A stretch of DNA of 63,876 nt, counting the filler, from Limisphaerales bacterium (GTDB lineage Bacteria; Verrucomicrobiota; Verrucomicrobiia; Limisphaerales; SIBE01), in NCBI GenBank assembly GCA_044225505.1. It is 9 parts of 9 records of this genome, joined end to end, with 100 filler letters (N's around TTAATTAATTAA, not from the genome) between each part and the next. Parts side by side here need not be neighbours in the genome. Positions count along the whole stretch, not along the records: positions 44,632 to 51,752 come from JBGAIN010000280.1; 8 more parts are not named here. The stretch is one strand, 5' to 3'. The translations under genes were made by a program, and so were the position numbers. This document shows, piece after piece, positions 908 through 51,852 of this stretch. Under the pieces are notes generated by a model, which was not told the origin of the DNA, did not search any database, and saw nothing but the letters and a program-made list of their open reading frames with translations. Each line of letters opens with the position of its first letter. The stretch's first letter is position 1.

Positions 908-3391
908 ATGAAGCTTGCCTTTCAAACCATTTGCTGGAACCATCGAGTCAAAAAAGCGCACTGGCCTCAACTCTTCAAGTCCATCAAAGCTGCCGGCTTT
1001 GACGGCGTCGAAGTATTCCAGCATCCCGACGACCTTCCTGCCTGGCCGACCTTCCGCGATCACGCGGAGGCATCTGGCCTCAAGATACTCGGACTCACCG
1101 GTGGCACCGTAGCCCAACGAGTCAATTACCTTCGCCCAGTCGGAATCCGGCCGTCAGGCGAAGAACCCTATCTCTACATCGAGCGATGGGATGACGAAGC
1201 GGAGTCAGCCTACGAGTCCGACTTTGTACTAGCTCTTCACTATCACCATCTCAGCGCCCTACCGAGCGTCTCGGATGCGCTGGAGCTTCTCACGAGCAAG
1301 CCCAAGTTAAAGTGGCTTCCGGACACCGCCCACCTCTTCATCGGCCAACAAAACAACGATCGCCTGCAGGAATTGCTTTTGCGGCATCTTGATCGAACCA
1401 TCGCCGTGCATCTTAAGGACTGGAAGGCCTCTTACGGCAGGTTCTCGCACCGCTACGCCAGAGGTTTCTGCGTCATCGGCCAGGGACAGATCAAGATCAA
1501 GGAGTTGGTGAAGCGCCTGAACAAGAGTGGGTATCAGGGATGGTACGTGGTCGAACTCGATTACGCCGCCTCCAATCCTGACGACGACATGCAAGCCTCC
1601 GCGCATACCTTGCAGGAGTGGAAGTTCCTCAGTCGGAAACCCACCACGGAGCCCAGCGACATCCCCACGGACATCGATACCGAGCGGGTCAGTTTCACTG
1701 CCGATAAGCTACTTCACCTCGCCTCTCGCGGGGAAACTTCTTTTTACTCCGATGTAGCCAAATTGCTCCGGGAACAGTTCAAGGCCGATGGTGCCGCGAT
1801 CTGTCTCACCAGTAACGCAGCCGCGGGTACCAGCGTTCAGGCACTTCTACCGGCTCCGGATCTCGCCGGCGATCCGCACCTTCAACGCCACACGGAAGAT
1901 TTGGCCCGCCGGTGCGTGAAACACAAAACACCGCAATCTGAGCGTTATGGACAGCTGGAACGGCTCGCTATCCCCGTAGAGAACCGCTATAGCCCGAATC
2001 AGATCCGCTTGGTCCTCGTCTTCGATGTCCGCCAGGGGAACACCGGTTTTGATCGCACTACCGCCGAGTCAAAGCTCTTTCAGCTGATGTTTGGTGACGT
2101 CCAGGATGTTTTTGTCACCGAGCGTTGTTTGGCTGCCTCGGCCGAGGCCAGTCGTCTAGCCTCTCAGTATTCCAATCAGGGTAGCTACCTGAACGCCATC
2201 GCCAATCTCGTCAAGAGAAAACTCGATTGTGAAGGAGTGACGATCTTCGTCAGCACGCCATCCCACGAAGCCCTCGTCGTAGGGGGCACCACCGGCATCC
2301 ATTGGGCGCCAGAGTATCAATGGCCGACGCGGCAACGATACGACTACGGAACTGGCCGCACCGGCCGCTCCGCCCAAACCCGCAGCTACAGCATCTTCCG
2401 CGATAGCGACGAGTTGCGGAAGGAACAAAAAGTGGGAAAAGCACGATCCCACGAAACCGGCGTCAATGTCGACGTTGATGGTTGCCTGATCGCGCCGTTC
2501 TTTGACAGCCGAGACGAGGTCGCCGGTGTCGTACGCTGCCGCAACAAAAAAGATGGCCAGGACGTCATGTACTTTAGCGAGGAGGACCTCGCCTTGGTCG
2601 AGGCCATCATGCAGGTCGTCCAACCAACCCTAGAGGTACTCGCCGAAGACCGTCTAGTCACCGACGCCGTTACCCTCCTCGCTCATGAACTCGGCAATCC
2701 CATCTTCGCCATGCGAGGCGCCCTAGCGGATCTCGAATTCGAGGTCACCAACCAGCGTTATATTCGCCCAGACAGCTTTCCCGACCTCCAGAGTTGGCTG
2801 GACCTGATGGTTCGTCAGCTCAAGCAATATGAATTATTCGTGGGCTCCAAGATGACGGCCTGGGAGCCCAAAAGGAGTGTCGTAAAGTTTATCGGCGACA
2901 TTGTCGCCCCGACCGTCGCGCAGGCGCGCATGCTTCTTCAAGAGCGCGGCTTCTCTCCCACCCGCATCAACTATGGCAAACTGAGCGATTGGCTCAACAT
3001 TCCTTTCCTTTATGTCGATCGCAACATGTTCGAGCAGGTAGTCTTCAATCTCATTAGCAACGCGATCAAATACGCCGATAGCGATCCCACGTTGTTTCAC
3101 TTAACCATCCGCGGCGAACGCCATGGTGAGCGCGTCCATCTGATCTTCGAGGACAACGGCATTGGCGTGCCACCCAGCTGGGAACAGGACATCTTTCTGC
3201 AGCACTCGCGCGTCATCGCTGAAGACAGAGCCGCCACGTCCGGTCATGGACTCGGCTTGTGGGTCGTTGACCGCATCGTCAAACTGCACCGCAGCCGAGT
3301 GTTCTTAGATTCTCTATCGTCGCCCACGCGATTTGTAATCGACCTCCCACCCACCGCCCTTGCCAAGCGAACAGGAAACACCGGCTACTAG
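908..3391 (+). CDS. Sensor histidine kinase with N-terminal sugar-phosphate isomerase/epimerase (IolE/AP-endonuclease-2-like) TIM barrel, GAF domain(s), HisKA and HATPase_c
   Basis: N-terminal motifs AAGFDGVE, DTAH, HLKD and GYQGWYVVELD. C-terminal H-box LAHELGNP, N-box FNLISNAIKY, G1 DNGIGVP and G2 GHGLGL. No obvious TM helix. ATG at 908. Confidence 0.85.
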   Translation: MKLAFQTICWNHRVKKAHWPQLFKSIKAAGFDGVEVFQHPDDLPAWPTFRDHAEASGLKILGLTGGTVAQRVNYLRPVGIRPSGEEPYLYIERWDDEAESAYESDFVLALHYHHLSALPSVSDALELLTSKPKLKWLPDTAHLFIGQQNNDRLQELLLRHLDRTIAVHLKDWKASYGRFSHRYARGFCVIGQGQIKIKELVKRLNKSGYQGWYVVELDYAASNPDDDMQASAHTLQEWKFLSRKPTTEPSDIPTDIDTERVSFTADKLLHLASRGETSFYSDVAKLLREQFKADGAAICLTSNAAAGTSVQALLPAPDLAGDPHLQRHTEDLARRCVKHKTPQSERYGQLERLAIPVENRYSPNQIRLVLVFDVRQGNTGFDRTTAESKLFQLMFGDVQDVFVTERCLAASAEASRLASQYSNQGSYLNAIANLVKRKLDCEGVTIFVSTPSHEALVVGGTTGIHWAPEYQWPTRQRYDYGTGRTGRSAQTRSYSIFRDSDELRKEQKVGKARSHETGVNVDVDGCLIAPFFDSRDEVAGVVRCRNKKDGQDVMYFSEEDLALVEAIMQVVQPTLEVLAEDRLVTDAVTLLAHELGNPIFAMRGALADLEFEVTNQRYIRPDSFPDLQSWLDLMVRQLKQYELFVGSKMTAWEPKRSVVKFIGDIVAPTVAQARMLLQERGFSPTRINYGKLSDWLNIPFLYVDRNMFEQVVFNLISNAIKYADSDPTLFHLTIRGERHGERVHLIFEDNGIGVPPSWEQDIFLQHSRVIAEDRAATSGHGLGLWVVDRIVKLHRSRVFLDSLSSPTRFVIDLPPTALAKRTGNTGY

Positions 3392-44883: not shown

Positions 44884-47208
44884 CTAGAGTCCGTCTCCCT
44901 CCCCGAGCTTCCGGATCTCCAAGCCGGAATCAGGCGAGTAGAATCGATCCACAATCGCCACATTGTCCTTCCACTCCGCCCCATCGCGCATGCTCCTCAG
45001 TTGACGCCCGCTCACCGGAATAGTGAGGGCGCTTGCTCGCGCGGGTTCTTGCTTCAACAAGTACTCATACTCTTTCTGGAGTGCACGAGGAAGAACTTCG
45101 TAGCCGTCGAACATGTCCTTAAACATCTGTCGAAGATGGTCGCTCGTCCCAACAAACGGCAGACAGTTGCTCAGCACCTCGGACTCGAATCGAGTCATCG
45201 CCGTGCGTAACGTGGTCTCCCATTCTGTGCCCATCTCGCTGTCATAGATTCGGTCGATCATTCCTTGGAGGGCGAGCTCATCAAGTCCAGTTCCGTTCCA
45301 ATGCTCCAACTCATCAATCGCAAAGCGAACCAGTCGCGCGTCATACACGGGTGAGCCATTGGGGATTACCCTACTGACGAATACCGGACGAAGGCCACGC
45401 TTGTTAGCACCTGCTTGACGGTTCACCCTACCGAATCTCTGAAACAGCGCTTCCAAGGGCGCGGGATCCGAAAATAGCGCGTCGAAATCGACATTGAGGC
45501 TTACCTCGACCACCTGAGTGGCGACTAACACGACTGCCTCCCTGGCAGCCTGATCCACGCCCCTCGCTTCAGCGAGTCTCTGCTCCTTTCGTGAACGATC
45601 TTGCCCATTGAAACGGCTGTGCAACAGTTCGACTGGCAGGGTGAGCCGCTCCTTAAGCTTCCGATAAACCTGTTTGGCGCGTTCCACTGTGGTGGCCACA
45701 ATCAACGGTGATCCGCCGGACTTTACGAACTGGACAATGCGCTCAATACTTGACTCGCTCACCAATTCCTCATCGACTAAATGAACTTCATGGCGGCGAA
45801 AGGACTCGCGCAAGCTGTCTTCGGCCTCCACGATCTGCATGCCCTGAAACTGTTCGGCCAGCAAGCTCGATAGGCGCCTTGGAAATGTAGCCGACATGAA
45901 GAAAAACTTCGCACCGTGATCCTTGGCAAGATGACGACAAAGAGCCAGTATCCGCCCCAGCCGCCCAGCATCATAGGCATGAATTTCATCGAGCACAAAG
46001 CACGACCCAGCGGCGTCCGTCCAAATCGCCTCCTGCCCACGCAGACCAAAAGCTGCGCCGAGCCAAGGGTAAGGACTCATAACTCGAATTGGCAGGGCAT
46101 GGAGCCGAGCCAAGCTTCGAGCGTTCTTGGCAATGCGTTGAGCATCTGCTTCCGCGTACCCTTTGTCCAGAGCCTGGGCGTATAGGGCTTGCAGGCTTCG
46201 AGAATGATGCAATGCCACCAACTCTCTGTTTGCGCCAAACGTTCGGTCAAGGCGCGTTTTCATGGCGTTCATGCTGGCTTGGAACGGAAGGCTGTAAAAG
46301 AGATTCGCCTCGTAGCTGCTATGACGTCGTTGGTTCTGATACCAAAGCAGCGCGGCCTCGGTCTTTCCACTCCCGGTCGGGGCAACCAACAAGCCGTGCC
46401 CCACCACTTCCGACGCGGCCCTTTGGTGGTAATACCAACTGTTTGCAGGAGGAAAAGAACTTTGGCTCATCGCTGCATTGAGGTCGCTTAGCCCCAGATA
46501 ACTTAAATCTTGTGCGGCCGATGCGGAATGGTCCGCGATCATCAATGCCCCTCGCAGAAAACGCCCTTCCATGAACGAAGTATCGGCAGCCCCCAAGCTA
46601 TCGACGTACTCTCGGCATTCCGTCGCTGTATCCTCTATCGACGTCCAAGCTTCACCTTCTGGCCACGGTCTCCGCGCGCCCTCCGACCAATTCTTCGGGA
46701 ACGGTCCGGCCGTCAGTTCGACGGCTGGCCAAATCAGTTCCGTTAGAAGTCTCTGAGCGATTGAAAGCCAATTGCTACCCAATTCCTTCTTCGTTCCCGG
46801 TGTCGGACCGCCGCAACACTCGCCGAACGCTCTGTTCCACTCCTTGTGGTGAGTAAGAATAGCGGCGCCAATGCGCGCCCGATCGGTAACGTCAGGCACA
46901 ATCCAACGGACCATTGCGACGGAGAACACCTCGTGACGCAGACCGAAACGTCTGGCGTGTCCATGCACCACAGCCTGAAACCCCGGACAGCACTTTCCGA
47001 GGTCGTGTAACGTAGCAGCCAGCAGCAAACGGCTCCAGAACCGATCGTCACCGATCAGAAGGCCGAGATCGATCGTCCTTTTTCGCAACGCCACAATTGA
47101 TTTAATGACGTCGAGTGTATGGCTAGTTAGTCTCTGCCCATCTGGGTCATCGCCGGTCGGCGACTTCGCCCAAATTGATTCGTCGAGTCTAGCCGTCTCC
47201 AAATCCAT
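44884..47208 (-). CDS. cas3: CRISPR-associated HD nuclease/helicase Cas3
   Basis: WAKS...SHTLDV, LHDLGK, IADHSAS, APTGSGKT, DEIH, MSAT, HSRF, ATQVVEVSLN and QRFGRVNR; likely start MDLETARL overlaps the cas5 end. Confidence 0.96.
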   Translation of the reverse strand: MDLETARLDESIWAKSPTGDDPDGQRLTSHTLDVIKSIVALRKRTIDLGLLIGDDRFWSRLLLAATLHDLGKCCPGFQAVVHGHARRFGLRHEVFSVAMVRWIVPDVTDRARIGAAILTHHKEWNRAFGECCGGPTPGTKKELGSNWLSIAQRLLTELIWPAVELTAGPFPKNWSEGARRPWPEGEAWTSIEDTATECREYVDSLGAADTSFMEGRFLRGALMIADHSASAAQDLSYLGLSDLNAAMSQSSFPPANSWYYHQRAASEVVGHGLLVAPTGSGKTEAALLWYQNQRRHSSYEANLFYSLPFQASMNAMKTRLDRTFGANRELVALHHSRSLQALYAQALDKGYAEADAQRIAKNARSLARLHALPIRVMSPYPWLGAAFGLRGQEAIWTDAAGSCFVLDEIHAYDAGRLGRILALCRHLAKDHGAKFFFMSATFPRRLSSLLAEQFQGMQIVEAEDSLRESFRRHEVHLVDEELVSESSIERIVQFVKSGGSPLIVATTVERAKQVYRKLKERLTLPVELLHSRFNGQDRSRKEQRLAEARGVDQAAREAVVLVATQVVEVSLNVDFDALFSDPAPLEALFQRFGRVNRQAGANKRGLRPVFVSRVIPNGSPVYDARLVRFAIDELEHWNGTGLDELALQGMIDRIYDSEMGTEWETTLRTAMTRFESEVLSNCLPFVGTSDHLRQMFKDMFDGYEVLPRALQKEYEYLLKQEPARASALTIPVSGRQLRSMRDGAEWKDNVAIVDRFYSPDSGLEIRKLGEGDGL

Positions 47209-47944
47209 GAAAGACGACACCTCGCTTGACTCCATCTCGAACTTTAGTGTCTGGATCGACGAGCCAATACTTCTGAGTCTCGTCCAGGTACTTCCAACTC
47301 GGCGCAATCGAGCCTTCGGAGCTGCCGCAGTAAAGCCGTTCACGCAACACGATGTACCGAGCAAGCTCTGCCTTCCGCTCGGGCGGAGGTGAGATGAAAC
47401 GTGGCATCGTAACCGTAGTCCCCTGGGCAGTAAATGGCCGCATCGAGAAAGGTAGAAGTGTACCTTGGAGGTACGCACCGGCCTCCGCCTTCAGCTCTAT
47501 CGTGTCGACACTGATCACGTCCGCGAGATCCTGCGACCGCCCCAACACCACGCAGAATGCCGGCCTGCGGAACGCATCCGCCCAATCTACACGATCAAGA
47601 TAGAGAGTCAGCCTAGCCCGAAAATGAAAGTCTCGGTACTGCGGCTGAACATTGCCTTCAATGTTCTTTGGAATCTTCTCACCTTGGTCTTTGAAGCTCC
47701 CACCTTGAGCATAAACGATATGCTGATGTTCTAGGTCGCTCGATCGTGCCTCCGATTCGAAATGATATCCGAACCGGAAACTTTCTCGATTGGGAATTTC
47801 ACCCAGCGCACTGGCGACATGCCCAAAGATCGTCGAGGGCGGCGGCATCTCGAATGTAGGTTGCCGAGCAATCAGCAAATGAGGGTGCCGAAACGAGGCT
47901 ACCCTAGCTTCTACCACGACACGTAAGACCGCTTGGTCAGGCAT
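47189..47944 (-). CDS. cas5: Type I-B Cas5
   Basis: ASFRHPH...QPTFEMPPPSTIFGHVASALG and VLGRSQDL. Confidence 0.94.
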   Translation of the reverse strand: MPDQAVLRVVVEARVASFRHPHLLIARQPTFEMPPPSTIFGHVASALGEIPNRESFRFGYHFESEARSSDLEHQHIVYAQGGSFKDQGEKIPKNIEGNVQPQYRDFHFRARLTLYLDRVDWADAFRRPAFCVVLGRSQDLADVISVDTIELKAEAGAYLQGTLLPFSMRPFTAQGTTVTMPRFISPPPERKAELARYIVLRERLYCGSSEGSIAPSWKYLDETQKYWLVDPDTKVRDGVKRGVVFHGFGDG

Positions 47945-49010
47945 ACCAGTCGGCGTTTGCAGACTTGCTCAACTCTGCGGCCATCGCCTCAAATTGCTCG
48001 ACCGGGTGAGCGAGAACAACCTTCACCGGACCGGAATAACTCGCTATCGCGCGCTCAAGTCTTCCTCGTTCTTCGTCGAGGAACCCCTTTTGCCATCCAA
48101 TCAGAACGGGTGAGAGAAAATCCTGCTCGTACACCGACAGTATCTCCGCGAACGCGTCTATATGAAACGACGTACTTCGATCCCTGGCGGCTGTAAAGAT
48201 TCGAGAAAACGGATTATTGCCGTGACGTGTAACCGCTAATACGTTCACCGCTGGCGTGATATCCGTATAGTGCAACGCTTGTTTAGCTCCGCCACTCCAA
48301 AATTTGAATGCCCGCAGGAGGGTGCTTACCCGCTCCTGTCGCTGATCCAGCGGTAATCGAAACGCCTGCTGATTACGAAGCTGCACAACTTCCAGACCAA
48401 TGGCTTGAGCATGCTCACGGCGATGAGTATCCAAGTTCCGGTAACCGACCCGCTCTCCGTCAAAAAAGGTCCCTGCCGCGGACAGATCTAGCGAGAGCAT
48501 CCCTGATAGATGCGCTCGGTAGAACTCATGTTCAAAAGGTACCGGATCTCCTTCATGTCGGGTCATGGTCCCAAAGTCACTCGTAATAGCAGCAGGAGCC
48601 ACGGAAACGAATGTACTCACCCGAAAAGGAGAGATTCTTGTGATATCACGATCCTTCTCGAGCGGAGCCGGAGGAGTCCCCTTCGCTTCTTTCTTCGATT
48701 CCTTCTTCGAGGGAGCTCGCATATAGCCAAACAAGTCGTCGTCCCAATAGCTAATTGGCTCGGCGTCGGTATAGGCGACTTTGTTCTCACGATGCACGGG
48801 CGCGAACTTCCAATCCGAGCCGTTAGTCTGCAGCGTCATTCTTAACCAATAGCGGACCGCCTGTGCGGACACATATGCATAGACGCCTCCACCAGTCCGA
48901 ATTTTCTTTACTGGAACTGTGTTATCCGTAGCCGCGCTATCCTCTGCCTTACCGTTGTTGAGCGCGGAGGCAGGGCAATCAAGCATGATCAATCCGGTCA
49001 AAAATGGCAC
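47937..49010 (-). CDS. cas7: Type I-B Cas7 (Cst2/DevR family)
   Basis: ASALNNG, YVSAQAVRYWLR, DDDLFGYMRA, RISPFRVS and GGAKQALHYTD. Confidence 0.94.
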   Translation of the reverse strand: MPFLTGLIMLDCPASALNNGKAEDSAATDNTVPVKKIRTGGGVYAYVSAQAVRYWLRMTLQTNGSDWKFAPVHRENKVAYTDAEPISYWDDDLFGYMRAPSKKESKKEAKGTPPAPLEKDRDITRISPFRVSTFVSVAPAAITSDFGTMTRHEGDPVPFEHEFYRAHLSGMLSLDLSAAGTFFDGERVGYRNLDTHRREHAQAIGLEVVQLRNQQAFRLPLDQRQERVSTLLRAFKFWSGGAKQALHYTDITPAVNVLAVTRHGNNPFSRIFTAARDRSTSFHIDAFAEILSVYEQDFLSPVLIGWQKGFLDEERGRLERAIASYSGPVKVVLAHPVEQFEAMAAELSKSANADWYA

Positions 49011-50599
49011 TAGGCCACCTCACTTTCTTTCTCTGACTCGTCTTCCTCCGATTCCTCAGGCAGCACATCTGCATCCATCGCCTTTAAATCGATCAGTTTT
49101 TCTACCACCCGCAGGGAAATCAGTGAACGAACAACTCGCCAATCGCCGACTCGTAAATTGTCATCAATCGCAAAAACTTCAATGTAGTTCGCCCAGCTAA
49201 TCAAAAGCTTCCCACCTTGGGCAACTCTCGATTGCTCTTTTGCCAAGATTGCATGGAGATCCTCCGGCCTTCTTGCCATCAGAATCCGTCGCAGTAGGCG
49301 CTTGTTTCCAGCTGCGATCTCGACCGCAAGCAGATCGCTGAAAGCCTTGATTCGGTCTAACCTGCTACTATTCATTCCCAGCACCTCTATCAGGAAAAGC
49401 TCTGCAATTAGCCACGCACCCTCCCTAATCTGCCCTGTTCTTATCCGGTGTGTGTCTTCACCGCGAAGAATGTCTCCGGCGGCACTATGCATTTTTCTCC
49501 GACTACCCAAAAGATGATATGAGACAAATGCGTTTGCCGCGTCGTCATTAATGCTGCCCTCTTCCGGAAACACTGCCATGAGATCCTGAAGCACGTGATT
49601 TTTCGACGTTCCGGGCTGCTGAAGTGAGCGTCTCCCCGAAGAGGAAGATTCGACCTCGGCGGTGGGCTTGCGATCCTTCTCTTTCTTTCGCTCGGATTCC
49701 CAGGACTTCGCCACAAGCCGTTGCCACGGCTGCCGGTATTCGCCACGCATAGCGTTATTAAGGAACGTGACCAGCGAGCTCGGAATGCCGAATACCCTGA
49801 GCGATGGTCCTTGCCCAGAGTTACTCATCCAAAGAGCCTCGACCGACGCATTAATGCGAGTGAACGACGGAAAGGCAGTCAGCAAAATATCTTGCAAATC
49901 GGAGAGGAGAAGCGTAGCCGGCGCTTTGGCATCAGCATACTTGGGGGAGCCCTTTTGCTTGTCATAAGCCGATAGCGCTCTCTCCAATACGTCATCGGCA
50001 TTTGGCAGCTGATTGGAACGCGCCAAATTGAAGTATCGTTGGTTGTCACGCCAATAGCGCGATGCAAAACTGAGCGTGAGAGTTGGCTGGTCCGAATGAA
50101 CAATCAGCAGTTTTCCCTCGCAACGCCTGCCCGCCAATGGCAAAGTCTGAAGGGCAGTCAAATATGGCCCAGCGATGGCCAGCCCGCCCTGTAAATTCGG
50201 AAAGAAGTTAAACACACCGTCGCCAGTAATCATCGGCATCTGGGATCGGTGAATTATGTGTGTTGCAAGCCCCCCGGAGAACGCACAAGCTAGACCACCA
50301 GCATCTGGGTCGCCGGCATACCGGTGAGCATAGAGCACCCGCCGAACGTACTTCTCGCGGGTCGCAGCTTTCTTTTCCGCTTGGGCTTCTTTCCCAGCAG
50401 GCTGCACGAACTCCGAGTTCATAAAAACACAACTCAGATAGCTCGAGTAGTATGCGTCGAAATAACGCCGCGTCATTTCTTCGGCCGCCTGATCGAGATC
50501 CTCTAGCGTTAGCAACGAAGGGCTCGTTCTCTGGGTAATCGCGCATAATCCCGCGATGCCTACATCGACAAGAGGGTTTCCGGTCCAGTCAAGTAACAC
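49010..50599 (-). CDS. cas8b: Type I-B large subunit Cas8b (Cst1-like)
   Basis: WTGNPLVDVGIA N-terminus, PMITG..VFNFF and MSNSGQGP; precedes cas7; GTG start. Confidence 0.85.
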   Translation of the reverse strand: MLLDWTGNPLVDVGIAGLCAITQRTSPSLLTLEDLDQAAEEMTRRYFDAYYSSYLSCVFMNSEFVQPAGKEAQAEKKAATREKYVRRVLYAHRYAGDPDAGGLACAFSGGLATHIIHRSQMPMITGDGVFNFFPNLQGGLAIAGPYLTALQTLPLAGRRCEGKLLIVHSDQPTLTLSFASRYWRDNQRYFNLARSNQLPNADDVLERALSAYDKQKGSPKYADAKAPATLLLSDLQDILLTAFPSFTRINASVEALWMSNSGQGPSLRVFGIPSSLVTFLNNAMRGEYRQPWQRLVAKSWESERKKEKDRKPTAEVESSSSGRRSLQQPGTSKNHVLQDLMAVFPEEGSINDDAANAFVSYHLLGSRRKMHSAAGDILRGEDTHRIRTGQIREGAWLIAELFLIEVLGMNSSRLDRIKAFSDLLAVEIAAGNKRLLRRILMARRPEDLHAILAKEQSRVAQGGKLLISWANYIEVFAIDDNLRVGDWRVVRSLISLRVVEKLIDLKAMDADVLPEESEEDESEKESEVA

Positions 50600-50699
50600 G
50601 AATTACAATTTGCCTTAATGTATCTCAATTTCAGACGGCGTGGAATACAATTTCACGTCAAGCTAAAAAAAGATTCTCCTCAGTACAGTATCCGTGGGT

Positions 50700-50777
50700 G
50701 TCCCCTACATATCGGGGCAGTCGATGACTCTTGAATACAGATTTCAGTCCCCTTCATTTCGGGTATACTCTGATTGC
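50700..50777 (-). CRISPR. Mini-CRISPR (crRNA-like RNA gene, CreA/CreR-like): one 37-nt repeat, short guide, one truncated degenerate repeat
   Basis: On the minus strand, repeat 1 is GCAATCAGAGTATACCCGAAATGAAGGGGACTGAAAT (50777-50741) and the guide is CTGTATTCAAGAGTCATCGACTG. The repeat 2 core CCCCGATATGTAGGGGAC (50717-50700) is 15/17 identical to the repeat-1 hairpin. Confidence 0.85.
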
Positions 50778-50779
50778 CT

Positions 50780-50871
50780 CGGAGAGAGAGGGATTCGAAC
50801 CCTCGGTTCGTGGTACGAGCACGAACGACCGCTTTGGAGGCAGCTGCATTAAACCACTCTGCCATCTCTCC
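50780..50871 (-). tRNA. Class II tRNA with serine-type body and CCA (Trp) anticodon; CCA tail not encoded
   Basis: GGAGAGA TG GCAGAGTGGTTTAATGC A GCTGC-CTCCAAA-GCGGT C-GTTCGTG-CTCGTAC-CACGAAC-C GAGGG-TTCGAAT-CCCTC TCTCTCC G. It forms a full cloverleaf with a 7-bp variable arm and G73. Confidence 0.92.
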
Positions 50872-50881
50872 GCAGCAACAC

Positions 50882-50911
50882 GGCGGGGCCGCAAGGCCCC
50901 GCCTTAATTTT
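50882..50911. terminator. Strong GC hairpin between the promoter and the tRNA (T-tract only on the + strand)
   Basis: GGCGGGGCC-GCAA-GGCCCCGCC followed by TTAATTTTT on +. Confidence 0.6.
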
Positions 50912-50961
50912 TGCAATGGTCAATCCCTGATGTCAAGATTTATGACTCTTGAATACAGGGG
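50907..50961 (-). promoter_or_regulatory. Sigma70-like promoter of the tRNA/mini-CRISPR unit with adjacent protospacer and PAM-like CCC
   Basis: Minus strand: CCC-CTGTATTCAAGAGTCAT (50958-50942)-AAATC-TTGACA (50936-50931)-18 nt ending TGC-AAAAAT (extended -10-like). Confidence 0.72.
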
Positions 50962-51752
50962 AGTTTTCATTGGAGACTTCCATCCAGCCTTTTCCCCAAA
51001 CCGTCTGCCGCCCCACACCTACCCATCGTCCAGCCTCCAGCCACGCAAGAAATGCACCATACTCGCCCTCATAGTCCACCCATCCAACGAACCCGCCGAT
51101 CTGGTGACGTTGCTTCGTCTTCGAGCTCTTCCTCTCCACGCTGGACCAAGAAACCGTTCCTCCGACGATGCGCAGGCGGTCGGCTGCTTGTATCAGGTCC
51201 TGATAGTCCGCAGTTGGGCGGCCGCCCTGGTACATCGTGCAAAGATTTCCAACGCGCATTGACAACCGTCGAAACAGGGTACCGAACTCAGGTCGAACTG
51301 CCACTTCGCCAGACTCTTTGAACTCGGTCGGAGAAAGAAAATGGACTCGCAGTAACCCGCTGGACGCCAGGGCACTTGCAAGCGGGATCGCAATTCCCGG
51401 TACAGCATTCCCGGCAAGCACTCCATCGGCGTAGACCACAGCCCCTTCGTTCTGGTTGCGGTCGAGCGTGGTGATTCGCGTCAGTAGAACTTTTGCCCGC
51501 CTTGGCCCCACACCTTCTGTGGCCATCTGACGAAACGCTAGGACGAAATAAGCGAACAGATCAGGCTTCCCCGAGAATAGATGCAGGTCGAAGTAGAACG
51601 CGCCCCCCGAAGGAATGGTGTCGCCCCGAAAGCCCGTTGGTCGAAACACAAACGCCCGCGGCGGATCTGCCAAACCGCTGGGGCCACCCTCCCACCTTGG
51701 CTCAAAGACCTGCGCATACGGGCATTCATGTGCCCCGGAGCATTGCGCGGGC
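50933..51752 (-). CDS. cas6: CRISPR-associated endoribonuclease Cas6, 5'-truncated by contig end
   Basis: CPYAQVFEP...PPRAFVFRP, FLSPTEFK, GGFVGWVDYEG and the G-rich loop VGVGRQTVWGKG. Confidence 0.92.
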
Positions 51753-51852
51753 NNNNNNNNNNNNNNNNNNNNNNNNNNNNNNNNNNNNNNNNNNNNTTAA
51801 TTAATTAANNNNNNNNNNNNNNNNNNNNNNNNNNNNNNNNNNNNNNNNNNNN

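Follow-up and report, generated by a model that had tools for sequence, protein, structure and literature searches.

The closest described relatives of the locus reported here are the CreTA modules, the type VIII toxin-antitoxin systems of Halobacterium hubeiense and Haloarcula hispanica (PMC8501985). In H. hubeiense, creTA is a single operon in which the toxin precedes the guide and which is auto-repressed more than 30-fold by seed pairing (PMC8501985). A preprint of June 2026 (10.64898/2026.06.02.729485) distinguishes three classes of CRISPR-repressed toxin: RNAs that sequester rare tRNAs, a small protein, and proline-codon RNAs. Of the regulatory mini-arrays, one Salmonella CreR matches 15 consecutive nucleotides (10.1101/2023.03.10.532045). 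On the side of the tRNA, induced allo-tRNAs with serine identity and leucine anticodons insert serine and bring growth arrest and death to E. coli (PMC5389517); the word Trp is absent from the main text of that paper, which describes no CRISPR control. Mistranslating tRNAs are also covered in PMC7609411. Seryl-tRNA synthetase (SerRS) ignores the anticodon, and the CCA anticodon and G73 are major elements for tryptophanyl-tRNA synthetase (TrpRS) (PMC9976931). Here we describe a locus in which a serine-bodied tRNA whose anticodon is that of tryptophan occupies the putative toxin slot of a CreTA-like module, which suggests that the cell may keep a protein-corrupting tRNA off while its CRISPR machinery works.

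A serine-bodied tRNA with a CCA anticodon in a type I-B cas operon

The window, by which we mean the whole stretch of 63,876 nucleotides that was analysed, is a composite of nine separate contigs, linked (7500-58935) by N runs and 12-base linkers, and genes across these joins are not neighbours. The tRNA gene lies with five cas genes on one of these contigs (C73, 44632-51752), within the 330 bases that separate cas6 from cas8b1; the operon is of type I-B. In the direction of transcription, the features are as follows.

50933..51673, minus strand: cas6, 246 aa; Pfam CRISPR_Cas6 E 5e-16, Gly-rich loop intact
50959..50961, minus strand: PAM-like CCC, 5' of the protospacer
50942..50958, minus strand: protospacer, which the spacer matches over 17 nt, lying 6-22 nt upstream of the -35 box
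50907..50936, minus strand: predicted sigma70-like promoter; TTGACA, 18 nt, AAAAAT, extended -10 TG
50882..50903, no strand assigned: all-GC hairpin of 9 bp where transcription is predicted to start; resembles a terminator on the plus strand
50780..50871, minus strand: Ser-bodied tRNA, 92 nt, CCA anticodon at 50837-50835, without an encoded CCA end; candidate toxin
50741..50777, minus strand: repeat-like unit 1, 37 nt; hairpin and 8-nt ACTGAAAT handle, beginning 3 nt past G73
50718..50740, minus strand: spacer-like segment, 23 nt, the first 17 nt equal to the protospacer
50700..50717, minus strand: repeat-like unit 2, degenerate; CCCC-loop-GGGG hairpin retained, folds
50665..50671, minus strand: seven consecutive T downstream of the mini-array; perhaps a weak transcript end, not called as a terminator
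49010..50599, minus strand: cas8b1/Cst1, 529 aa; TIGR01908 19.1 bits, just below the 19.4 cut-off
47937..49010, minus strand: cas7/Cst2; TIGR02585 E 2e-49
47189..47944, minus strand: cas5b; TIGR01895 under its cut-off, TIGR02593 over
44884..47193, minus strand: cas3; TIGR01587 and TIGR01596 over cut-off, HD and helicase motifs intact

The homologs of cas8b1 bear the name Cst1, the best being 52% identical, and the last codons of cas6 overlap both the protospacer and the -35 box. The composition of C73 is atypical (second lowest among 78 small contigs), and the contig is therefore foreign or misbinned; neither cas1 nor a CRISPR array was found in the assembly, which is 95% complete. In a second assembly, from a run that may be the source sample (X1), one Logan contig spans 50815-51400, and with it the anticodon, promoter and target, with 0 differences at a depth of 5.4, this being evidence from contigs rather than raw reads. 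Another X1 contig covers the mini-array, and no contig spans 50766-50814, a stretch whose T arm is common to other tRNAs; runs X2 and X3 do not cover the locus.

Both ARAGORN and Rfam call the minus strand of 50780-50871 as a tRNA (Rfam tRNA 54.8 bits). By stem check, the acceptor stem has seven of seven Watson-Crick pairs, including G1-C72, G2-C71 and A3-U70; the D stem has three pairs plus G13.A22, with C11-G24 present; the anticodon stem is paired at all five positions, two of them G-U, and carries the loop CU-CCA-AA; the variable arm (7/7) and T stem (5/5) are fully paired and the discriminator is G73. An earlier note on this DNA had reported serine identity elements with a CCA anticodon, listing the three acceptor pairs, C11-G24, G73, the 7-bp variable arm, the anticodon loop, the two G-U pairs and the lack of an encoded CCA end, every one of which we confirm, and its description of a canonical 7/5 fold, unlike the 8/4 or 9/3 acceptor branch of allo-tRNAs, is borne out by the same calls and stem check. 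The sequence is identical to host Ser(GGA) at 72/92 positions, to the other three host Ser tRNAs at 64-65 (Ser(CGA) at 64) and to the host Trp tRNA at 53. Profiles built with the anticodon masked from 30 Ser, 12 long CCA and 8 short CCA tRNAs score it at 62.5 bits as Ser, 23.0 as long-arm phage Trp and 9.2 as short Trp; in leave-one-out trials the own profile was best for 13 of the 14 Ser tRNAs tested (of 30) and for 10/12 long CCA tRNAs. It thus has serine identity elements with a non-Ser anticodon, as allo-tRNAs do. With bacterial tRNA-Trp it shares the CCA anticodon and G73, and in place of A1, G3-C70 and a short variable loop it has G1-C72, A3-U70 and the 7-bp arm. Identities, masked profiles, stems and the published identity rules (PMC9976931) together back the assignment of serine identity with a tryptophan anticodon, and the caveat raised with it, that TrpRS uses CCA and G73, matches those same rules. 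The host already carries a normal Trp tRNA and Ser tRNAs with GCT, CGA, GGA and TGA anticodons, and the gene is therefore an extra one.

Maturation is the weak link of the mistranslation reading. An encoded CCA end is present in 42/45 other host tRNA calls and absent here; the host has RNase PH and SerRS, its CCA-adding-like enzyme falls short of the family cut-offs, and RNase Z is matched only under the cut-off. The tRNA leader can pair with the trailer at 7/8 positions, including C(-1):G73, and can extend the acceptor helix, a pairing that might hinder processing. Two SerRS genes, 75% identical, lie on small contigs (C83 and C13) and are either paralogs or bin contamination. The second of them was considered as part of the locus and set aside, as it is on another contig, is not linked and may be contamination.

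The mini-array, its target and the search for relatives

The predicted promoter, with 10/12 consensus matches, is the sole promoter-like site in 50500-51810, though the scan is weak by itself because shuffled sequence gives 0.6 sites on average. The scan found no antisense promoter, and neither a second promoter nor a called terminator between the mini-array and cas8. A leader mini-ORF with rare codons was considered and judged incidental: the 10-codon frame from 50881 has CGG-AGA, no ribosome-binding site is free for it, and it is a by-product of the tRNA-Ser sequence.

Downstream of the tRNA, the first repeat-like unit agrees in length and in its 3' half with the 37-nt array repeats of three related operons (L035, L037, L057), while the degenerate second unit is 88% identical to the first over 17 nt and resembles the second repeat of L005. 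The spacer and its target agree at 17/17 bases as an exact direct repeat; this 17-nt sequence has two exact copies in the whole genome, the spacer and the target, and a repeat of at least 17 nt was reached in 0/5000 simulated regions. Set in a type I cas operon, the locus carries a repeat-like unit, spacer-like segment and degenerate second repeat (judged against the repeats of related operons) and a limited match (17 nt) at the putative toxin promoter beside a PAM-like CCC, and so shows every feature of the CreTA regulatory half that a sequence can reveal. A further repeat-like match, on contig C126, lies inside open frames without a cas gene and was taken as chance.

These features were compared with the best 80 of 160 confirmed related operons, some of which end before the region upstream of cas8; the cas6-cas8 gap was read by eye in 18. 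A CCN PAM flanks all four targets of non-array repeats with at least 10 seed matches, namely those in the window (CCC, 17/17), L005 (CCC, 16/18), L021 (CCT, 16/17) and L037 (CCA, 10/11). Three further non-array repeats have 9 matches only and other flanks, and seven lack a target; where true array spacers match 9-10 positions by chance, the flanks are not CCN. We regard it as highly probable that the guide controls the promoter of the tRNA. The earlier note's reading of a natural missense suppressor stands in its combination of serine identity and Trp anticodon, and fails in treating the gene as free-standing, since a mini-CRISPR guide targets the gene's own promoter.

Several of the related operons are of interest in themselves. 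The mini-arrays at L005:3195-3310 and L021:836-1530, with nearby 16-match CCN-flanked targets, are CreR-like. In L037 (2600-3470) a DUF3800 gene fills the cas6-cas8 slot and its promoter region is matched by a mini-array spacer with a CCA PAM, which makes it a candidate CRISPR-repressed protein cargo; L062 retains a remnant. Two tRNA-like remnants (L006:1943-2027 and L036:1136-1218, one of them Leu-like with a GAT anticodon) were rejected as counterparts, being upstream of cas6 and probably integration relics.

No credible tRNA was found upstream of cas8 in the best 80 of the 160 related operons, and of 8000 candidates scored for Cas8 the closest shares 52% identity. Other serine-bodied CCA tRNAs do exist, one in viral contigs and seven matches (6 distinct) in metagenomes, most without an encoded CCA end and in mobile-looking DNA; the seven other distinct examples show no match to these five Cas proteins, a test that other CRISPR types escape. 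Cas7 occurs in 2/13 genomes of the family (its own and one weak partial match) and is confirmed in no viral contig; Cas8 occurs in one plasmid record (26%) and, in the phylum of G657, in 1/401 genomes, G657 itself. The intergenic DNA has no match in phages and one in plasmids, to the tRNA part only; of 401 phylum genomes 388 match, among the matches listed by the tRNA part only (73-80%). The serine-body pattern with a subset of non-Ser anticodons is found in 1/251 in the order (the own genome) and elsewhere in 1/401 (an amber tRNA among IS elements) and 0/251, and the pattern of tRNA plus repeat gave 0 matches in viral contigs. The CRISPR-tRNA module is thus a singleton within the searched DNA, and this is the main limit on our confidence.

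The other serine-bodied CCA tRNAs (L112:4001-4092, L113:124-216, L114, L116:636-722, L117, L119; mostly without encoded CCA) are varied in setting: that of L116 follows an HTH gene and a DUF3467-like gene, that of L113 follows an odd CTG-anticodon tRNA, and L114 has an enlarged variable arm. A further one, L115, looks like a Ser(CGA) tRNA with a consensus error or recent point change. Of 14 viral long-arm CCA tRNAs, 13 look like true Trp tRNAs with A1-type acceptor stems and are apparently class II-shaped tRNA-Trp; these 13 sit in phage tRNA clusters (L083-L093, L095, L096, near 2990-3080 each). When the anticodon pattern was widened, the 100 viral Ser-body matches (L120-L219) comprised 94 Ser tRNAs with the unusual ACT anticodon and 6 that are non-Ser; viral Ser bodies with CAC, CTA, TAT and CTT anticodons are also present. 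Ser-body amber (CTA) tRNAs with a long variable-arm insert occur in L167 and in L226 (about 1450-1540), the latter among insertion-sequence genes.

A candidate tRNA toxin and competing explanations

The best explanation of this locus, which we hold at slightly better than even confidence, is a CreTA-type CRISPR-repressed toxin-antitoxin module whose toxin is a Trp-to-Ser mistranslating tRNA. The transcription, Cas6 processing, repression, tRNA maturation, serylation and toxicity that we infer from the sequence would proceed as follows. The promoter at the end of cas6 would make one RNA holding the tRNA and then the crRNA-like guide, and Cas6 would cut the two repeat-like hairpins to yield a short guide of about 47 nt. 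Type I-B Cascade would then bind the 17-nt target, with its CCC flank, next to the -35 box, and the pairing would be too short for Cas3 cutting, so that the promoter would only be damped; that 17-nt pairing supports binding without Cas3 cutting rests on the precedent of CreA and CreR. Were Cascade lost by deletion or disabled by an anti-CRISPR, the tRNA would accumulate and SerRS would charge it. Serine would then be inserted at UGG, the only tryptophan codon, and the cell would be arrested or killed, a toxicity that we propose by analogy with allo-tRNAs.

In favor of this reading, the position between cas6 and cas8b1 is that of H. hispanica creTA (PMC8501985), the unit of promoter, toxin and guide follows the auto-repressed H. 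hubeiense operon, and the full spacer-target match and CCN PAMs are accompanied by the L037 cargo in the same slot. The tRNA keeps its stem pairs, scores as Ser and is redundant to the host Trp and four Ser tRNAs; induced allo-tRNAs of the kind described above arrest or kill E. coli; and the host offers SerRS, RNase PH, a CCA-adding-like enzyme and tryptophan in 3833/3914 long open frames. Against it stand the single case, with the other serine-bodied CCA tRNAs unmatched to these Cas proteins, the missing encoded CCA end, an RNase Z seen only below cut-off, the leader-trailer pairing that might hinder processing, the two G-U pairs that weaken the anticodon stem, the presence of CCA and G73 as major TrpRS elements, the long-arm Trp-type tRNAs that phages carry, a promoter that may also serve cas8-7-5-3, and the missing cas1 and array.

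The most serious competitor, which we regard as unlikely though deserving of weight, is CreR-type cas autoregulation, in which the guide would damp the cas8-7-5-3 promoter and the tRNA would be a harmless passenger from an insertion, or would aid guide release by way of tRNA processing. The predicted promoter upstream of the tRNA could read through to cas8, with no second promoter or called terminator after the mini-array, and may thus serve cas8-7-5-3, which would explain a guide without a toxin. Moreover, CreR autorepression is widespread (bioRxiv 10.1101/2023.03.10.532045), four relatives (L005, L008, L036, L062) have mini-arrays upstream of cas8 without any tRNA, and the lack of an encoded CCA end would suit a passenger. 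However, an inert passenger is not expected to retain all of its stem pairs, a processing aid has no need of a Trp anticodon, and CreA can repress toxin and cas promoters alike (10.1101/2023.03.10.532045), so that a toxin role is compatible with cas control.

The regulatory evidence is equally at home in a CreTA-type module that acts without mistranslation, an option that we consider improbable, in which an uncharged or unprocessed mimic would sequester SerRS, TrpRS or EF-Tu or make ribosomes stall at UGG. The absent CCA end and extended leader-trailer pairing would agree with such a mimic, as would some allo-tRNA variants that killed E. coli while the reporter was not suppressed (PMC5389517), whereas the canonical 7/5 fold, the complete Ser identity set and the CCA-adding-like enzyme of the host speak against it.

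It is very unlikely that the gene encodes an auxiliary tRNA-Trp, a substrate of TrpRS that would be switched on together with the cas genes, for example against anticodon nucleases. The CCA anticodon and G73 are the elements that TrpRS would read, and phages do carry long-arm tRNAs of Trp type, but those phage tRNAs start with A1, the Ser profile far outscores the long-arm Trp profile here, SerRS ignores the anticodon (PMC9976931), and the Cas proteins are not rich in tryptophan (1.2-2.4% vs 1.7% overall). Finally, the idea that an ordinary Ser(CGA) gene was altered by a consensus error, or recently by a neutral point change, scarcely merits credence: CCA is indeed one change from CGA, as the earlier note cautioned, depth is only about 5 and L115 is a seeming case elsewhere, but the caveat is weakened because the second assembly agrees on CCA, the host has its own, clearly distinct Ser(CGA), the anticodon stem is unlike those of the host Ser tRNAs yet stays paired, and an ordinary Ser tRNA needs no guide against its promoter.

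Comparison with known systems

A tRNA is not named as a toxin in the accessible text of a 2025 review (PMC12737573) or of 10.1101/2023.03.03.530964 (a mini-array survey), 10.1101/2024.01.05.574328 (CreP) and PMC9458426, nor does one appear in two supplements of that survey (PMC10120712). In the open literature we found no tRNA gene described as a CRISPR-repressed toxin; subscription papers lie outside this search, among them Li et al. 2021 (Science), whose supplements may bear on novelty. We put at about even the chance that the locus represents a new CRISPR-guarded toxin class, a bona fide tRNA that would recode the tryptophan codon to serine proteome-wide, with a crRNA-like antitoxin, and that would be freed by anti-CRISPRs or cas loss.

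Mismatched tRNAs of body and anticodon recur in mobile DNA, and this locus offers them a specific, testable off-switch and purpose. If true, our reading would add a further class of CRISPR-repressed toxin and tie deliberate mistranslation to anti-phage defence, in a 260-base kill switch requiring just Cascade and host translation. Mistranslation would then be an evolved effector of abortive infection and addiction, and mismatched tRNAs beside cas genes would be a searchable signature.

With CreTA (PMC8501985), the locus shares the type I-B setting and cas6-cas8 position, one promoter followed by the toxin slot and then repeat, spacer and degenerate repeat, a spacer seed matched at the promoter region beside a PAM and, as we propose, an action on translation. 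It differs in that each known CreT RNA is a mini-ORF mRNA, one that sequesters rare tRNAs or relies on proline codons, and CreP is a protein, whereas here a full tRNA gene, predicted to miscode, takes the slot, in place of a small protein or of a mini-ORF RNA with its ribosome-binding site and its rare or proline codons; and CreTA pairs over 10 seed nt beside a TTC PAM, whereas pairing here extends over 17 contiguous nt beside a CCN PAM. The locus thus lies outside the described CreT classes, and its tRNA, by its 7/5 fold, outside the allo-tRNAs. CreR and other regulatory mini-arrays (10.1101/2023.03.10.532045; 10.1101/2023.03.03.530964) share the degenerate mini-array upstream of cas8 and the short promoter match, and differ from this locus in which a tRNA gene stands between the targeted promoter and the mini-array. 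Allo-tRNAs (PMC5389517) share serine identity, a long variable arm and a non-cognate anticodon, are toxic when induced and are often near toxin-antitoxin genes. Natural mistranslating tRNAs such as fungal tRNA-Ser(CAG) likewise derive from Ser or Ala tRNAs, as those synthetases ignore the anticodon (PMC11415595); the tRNAs described there have no CRISPR link, whereas here expression appears to be held down by a guide RNA.
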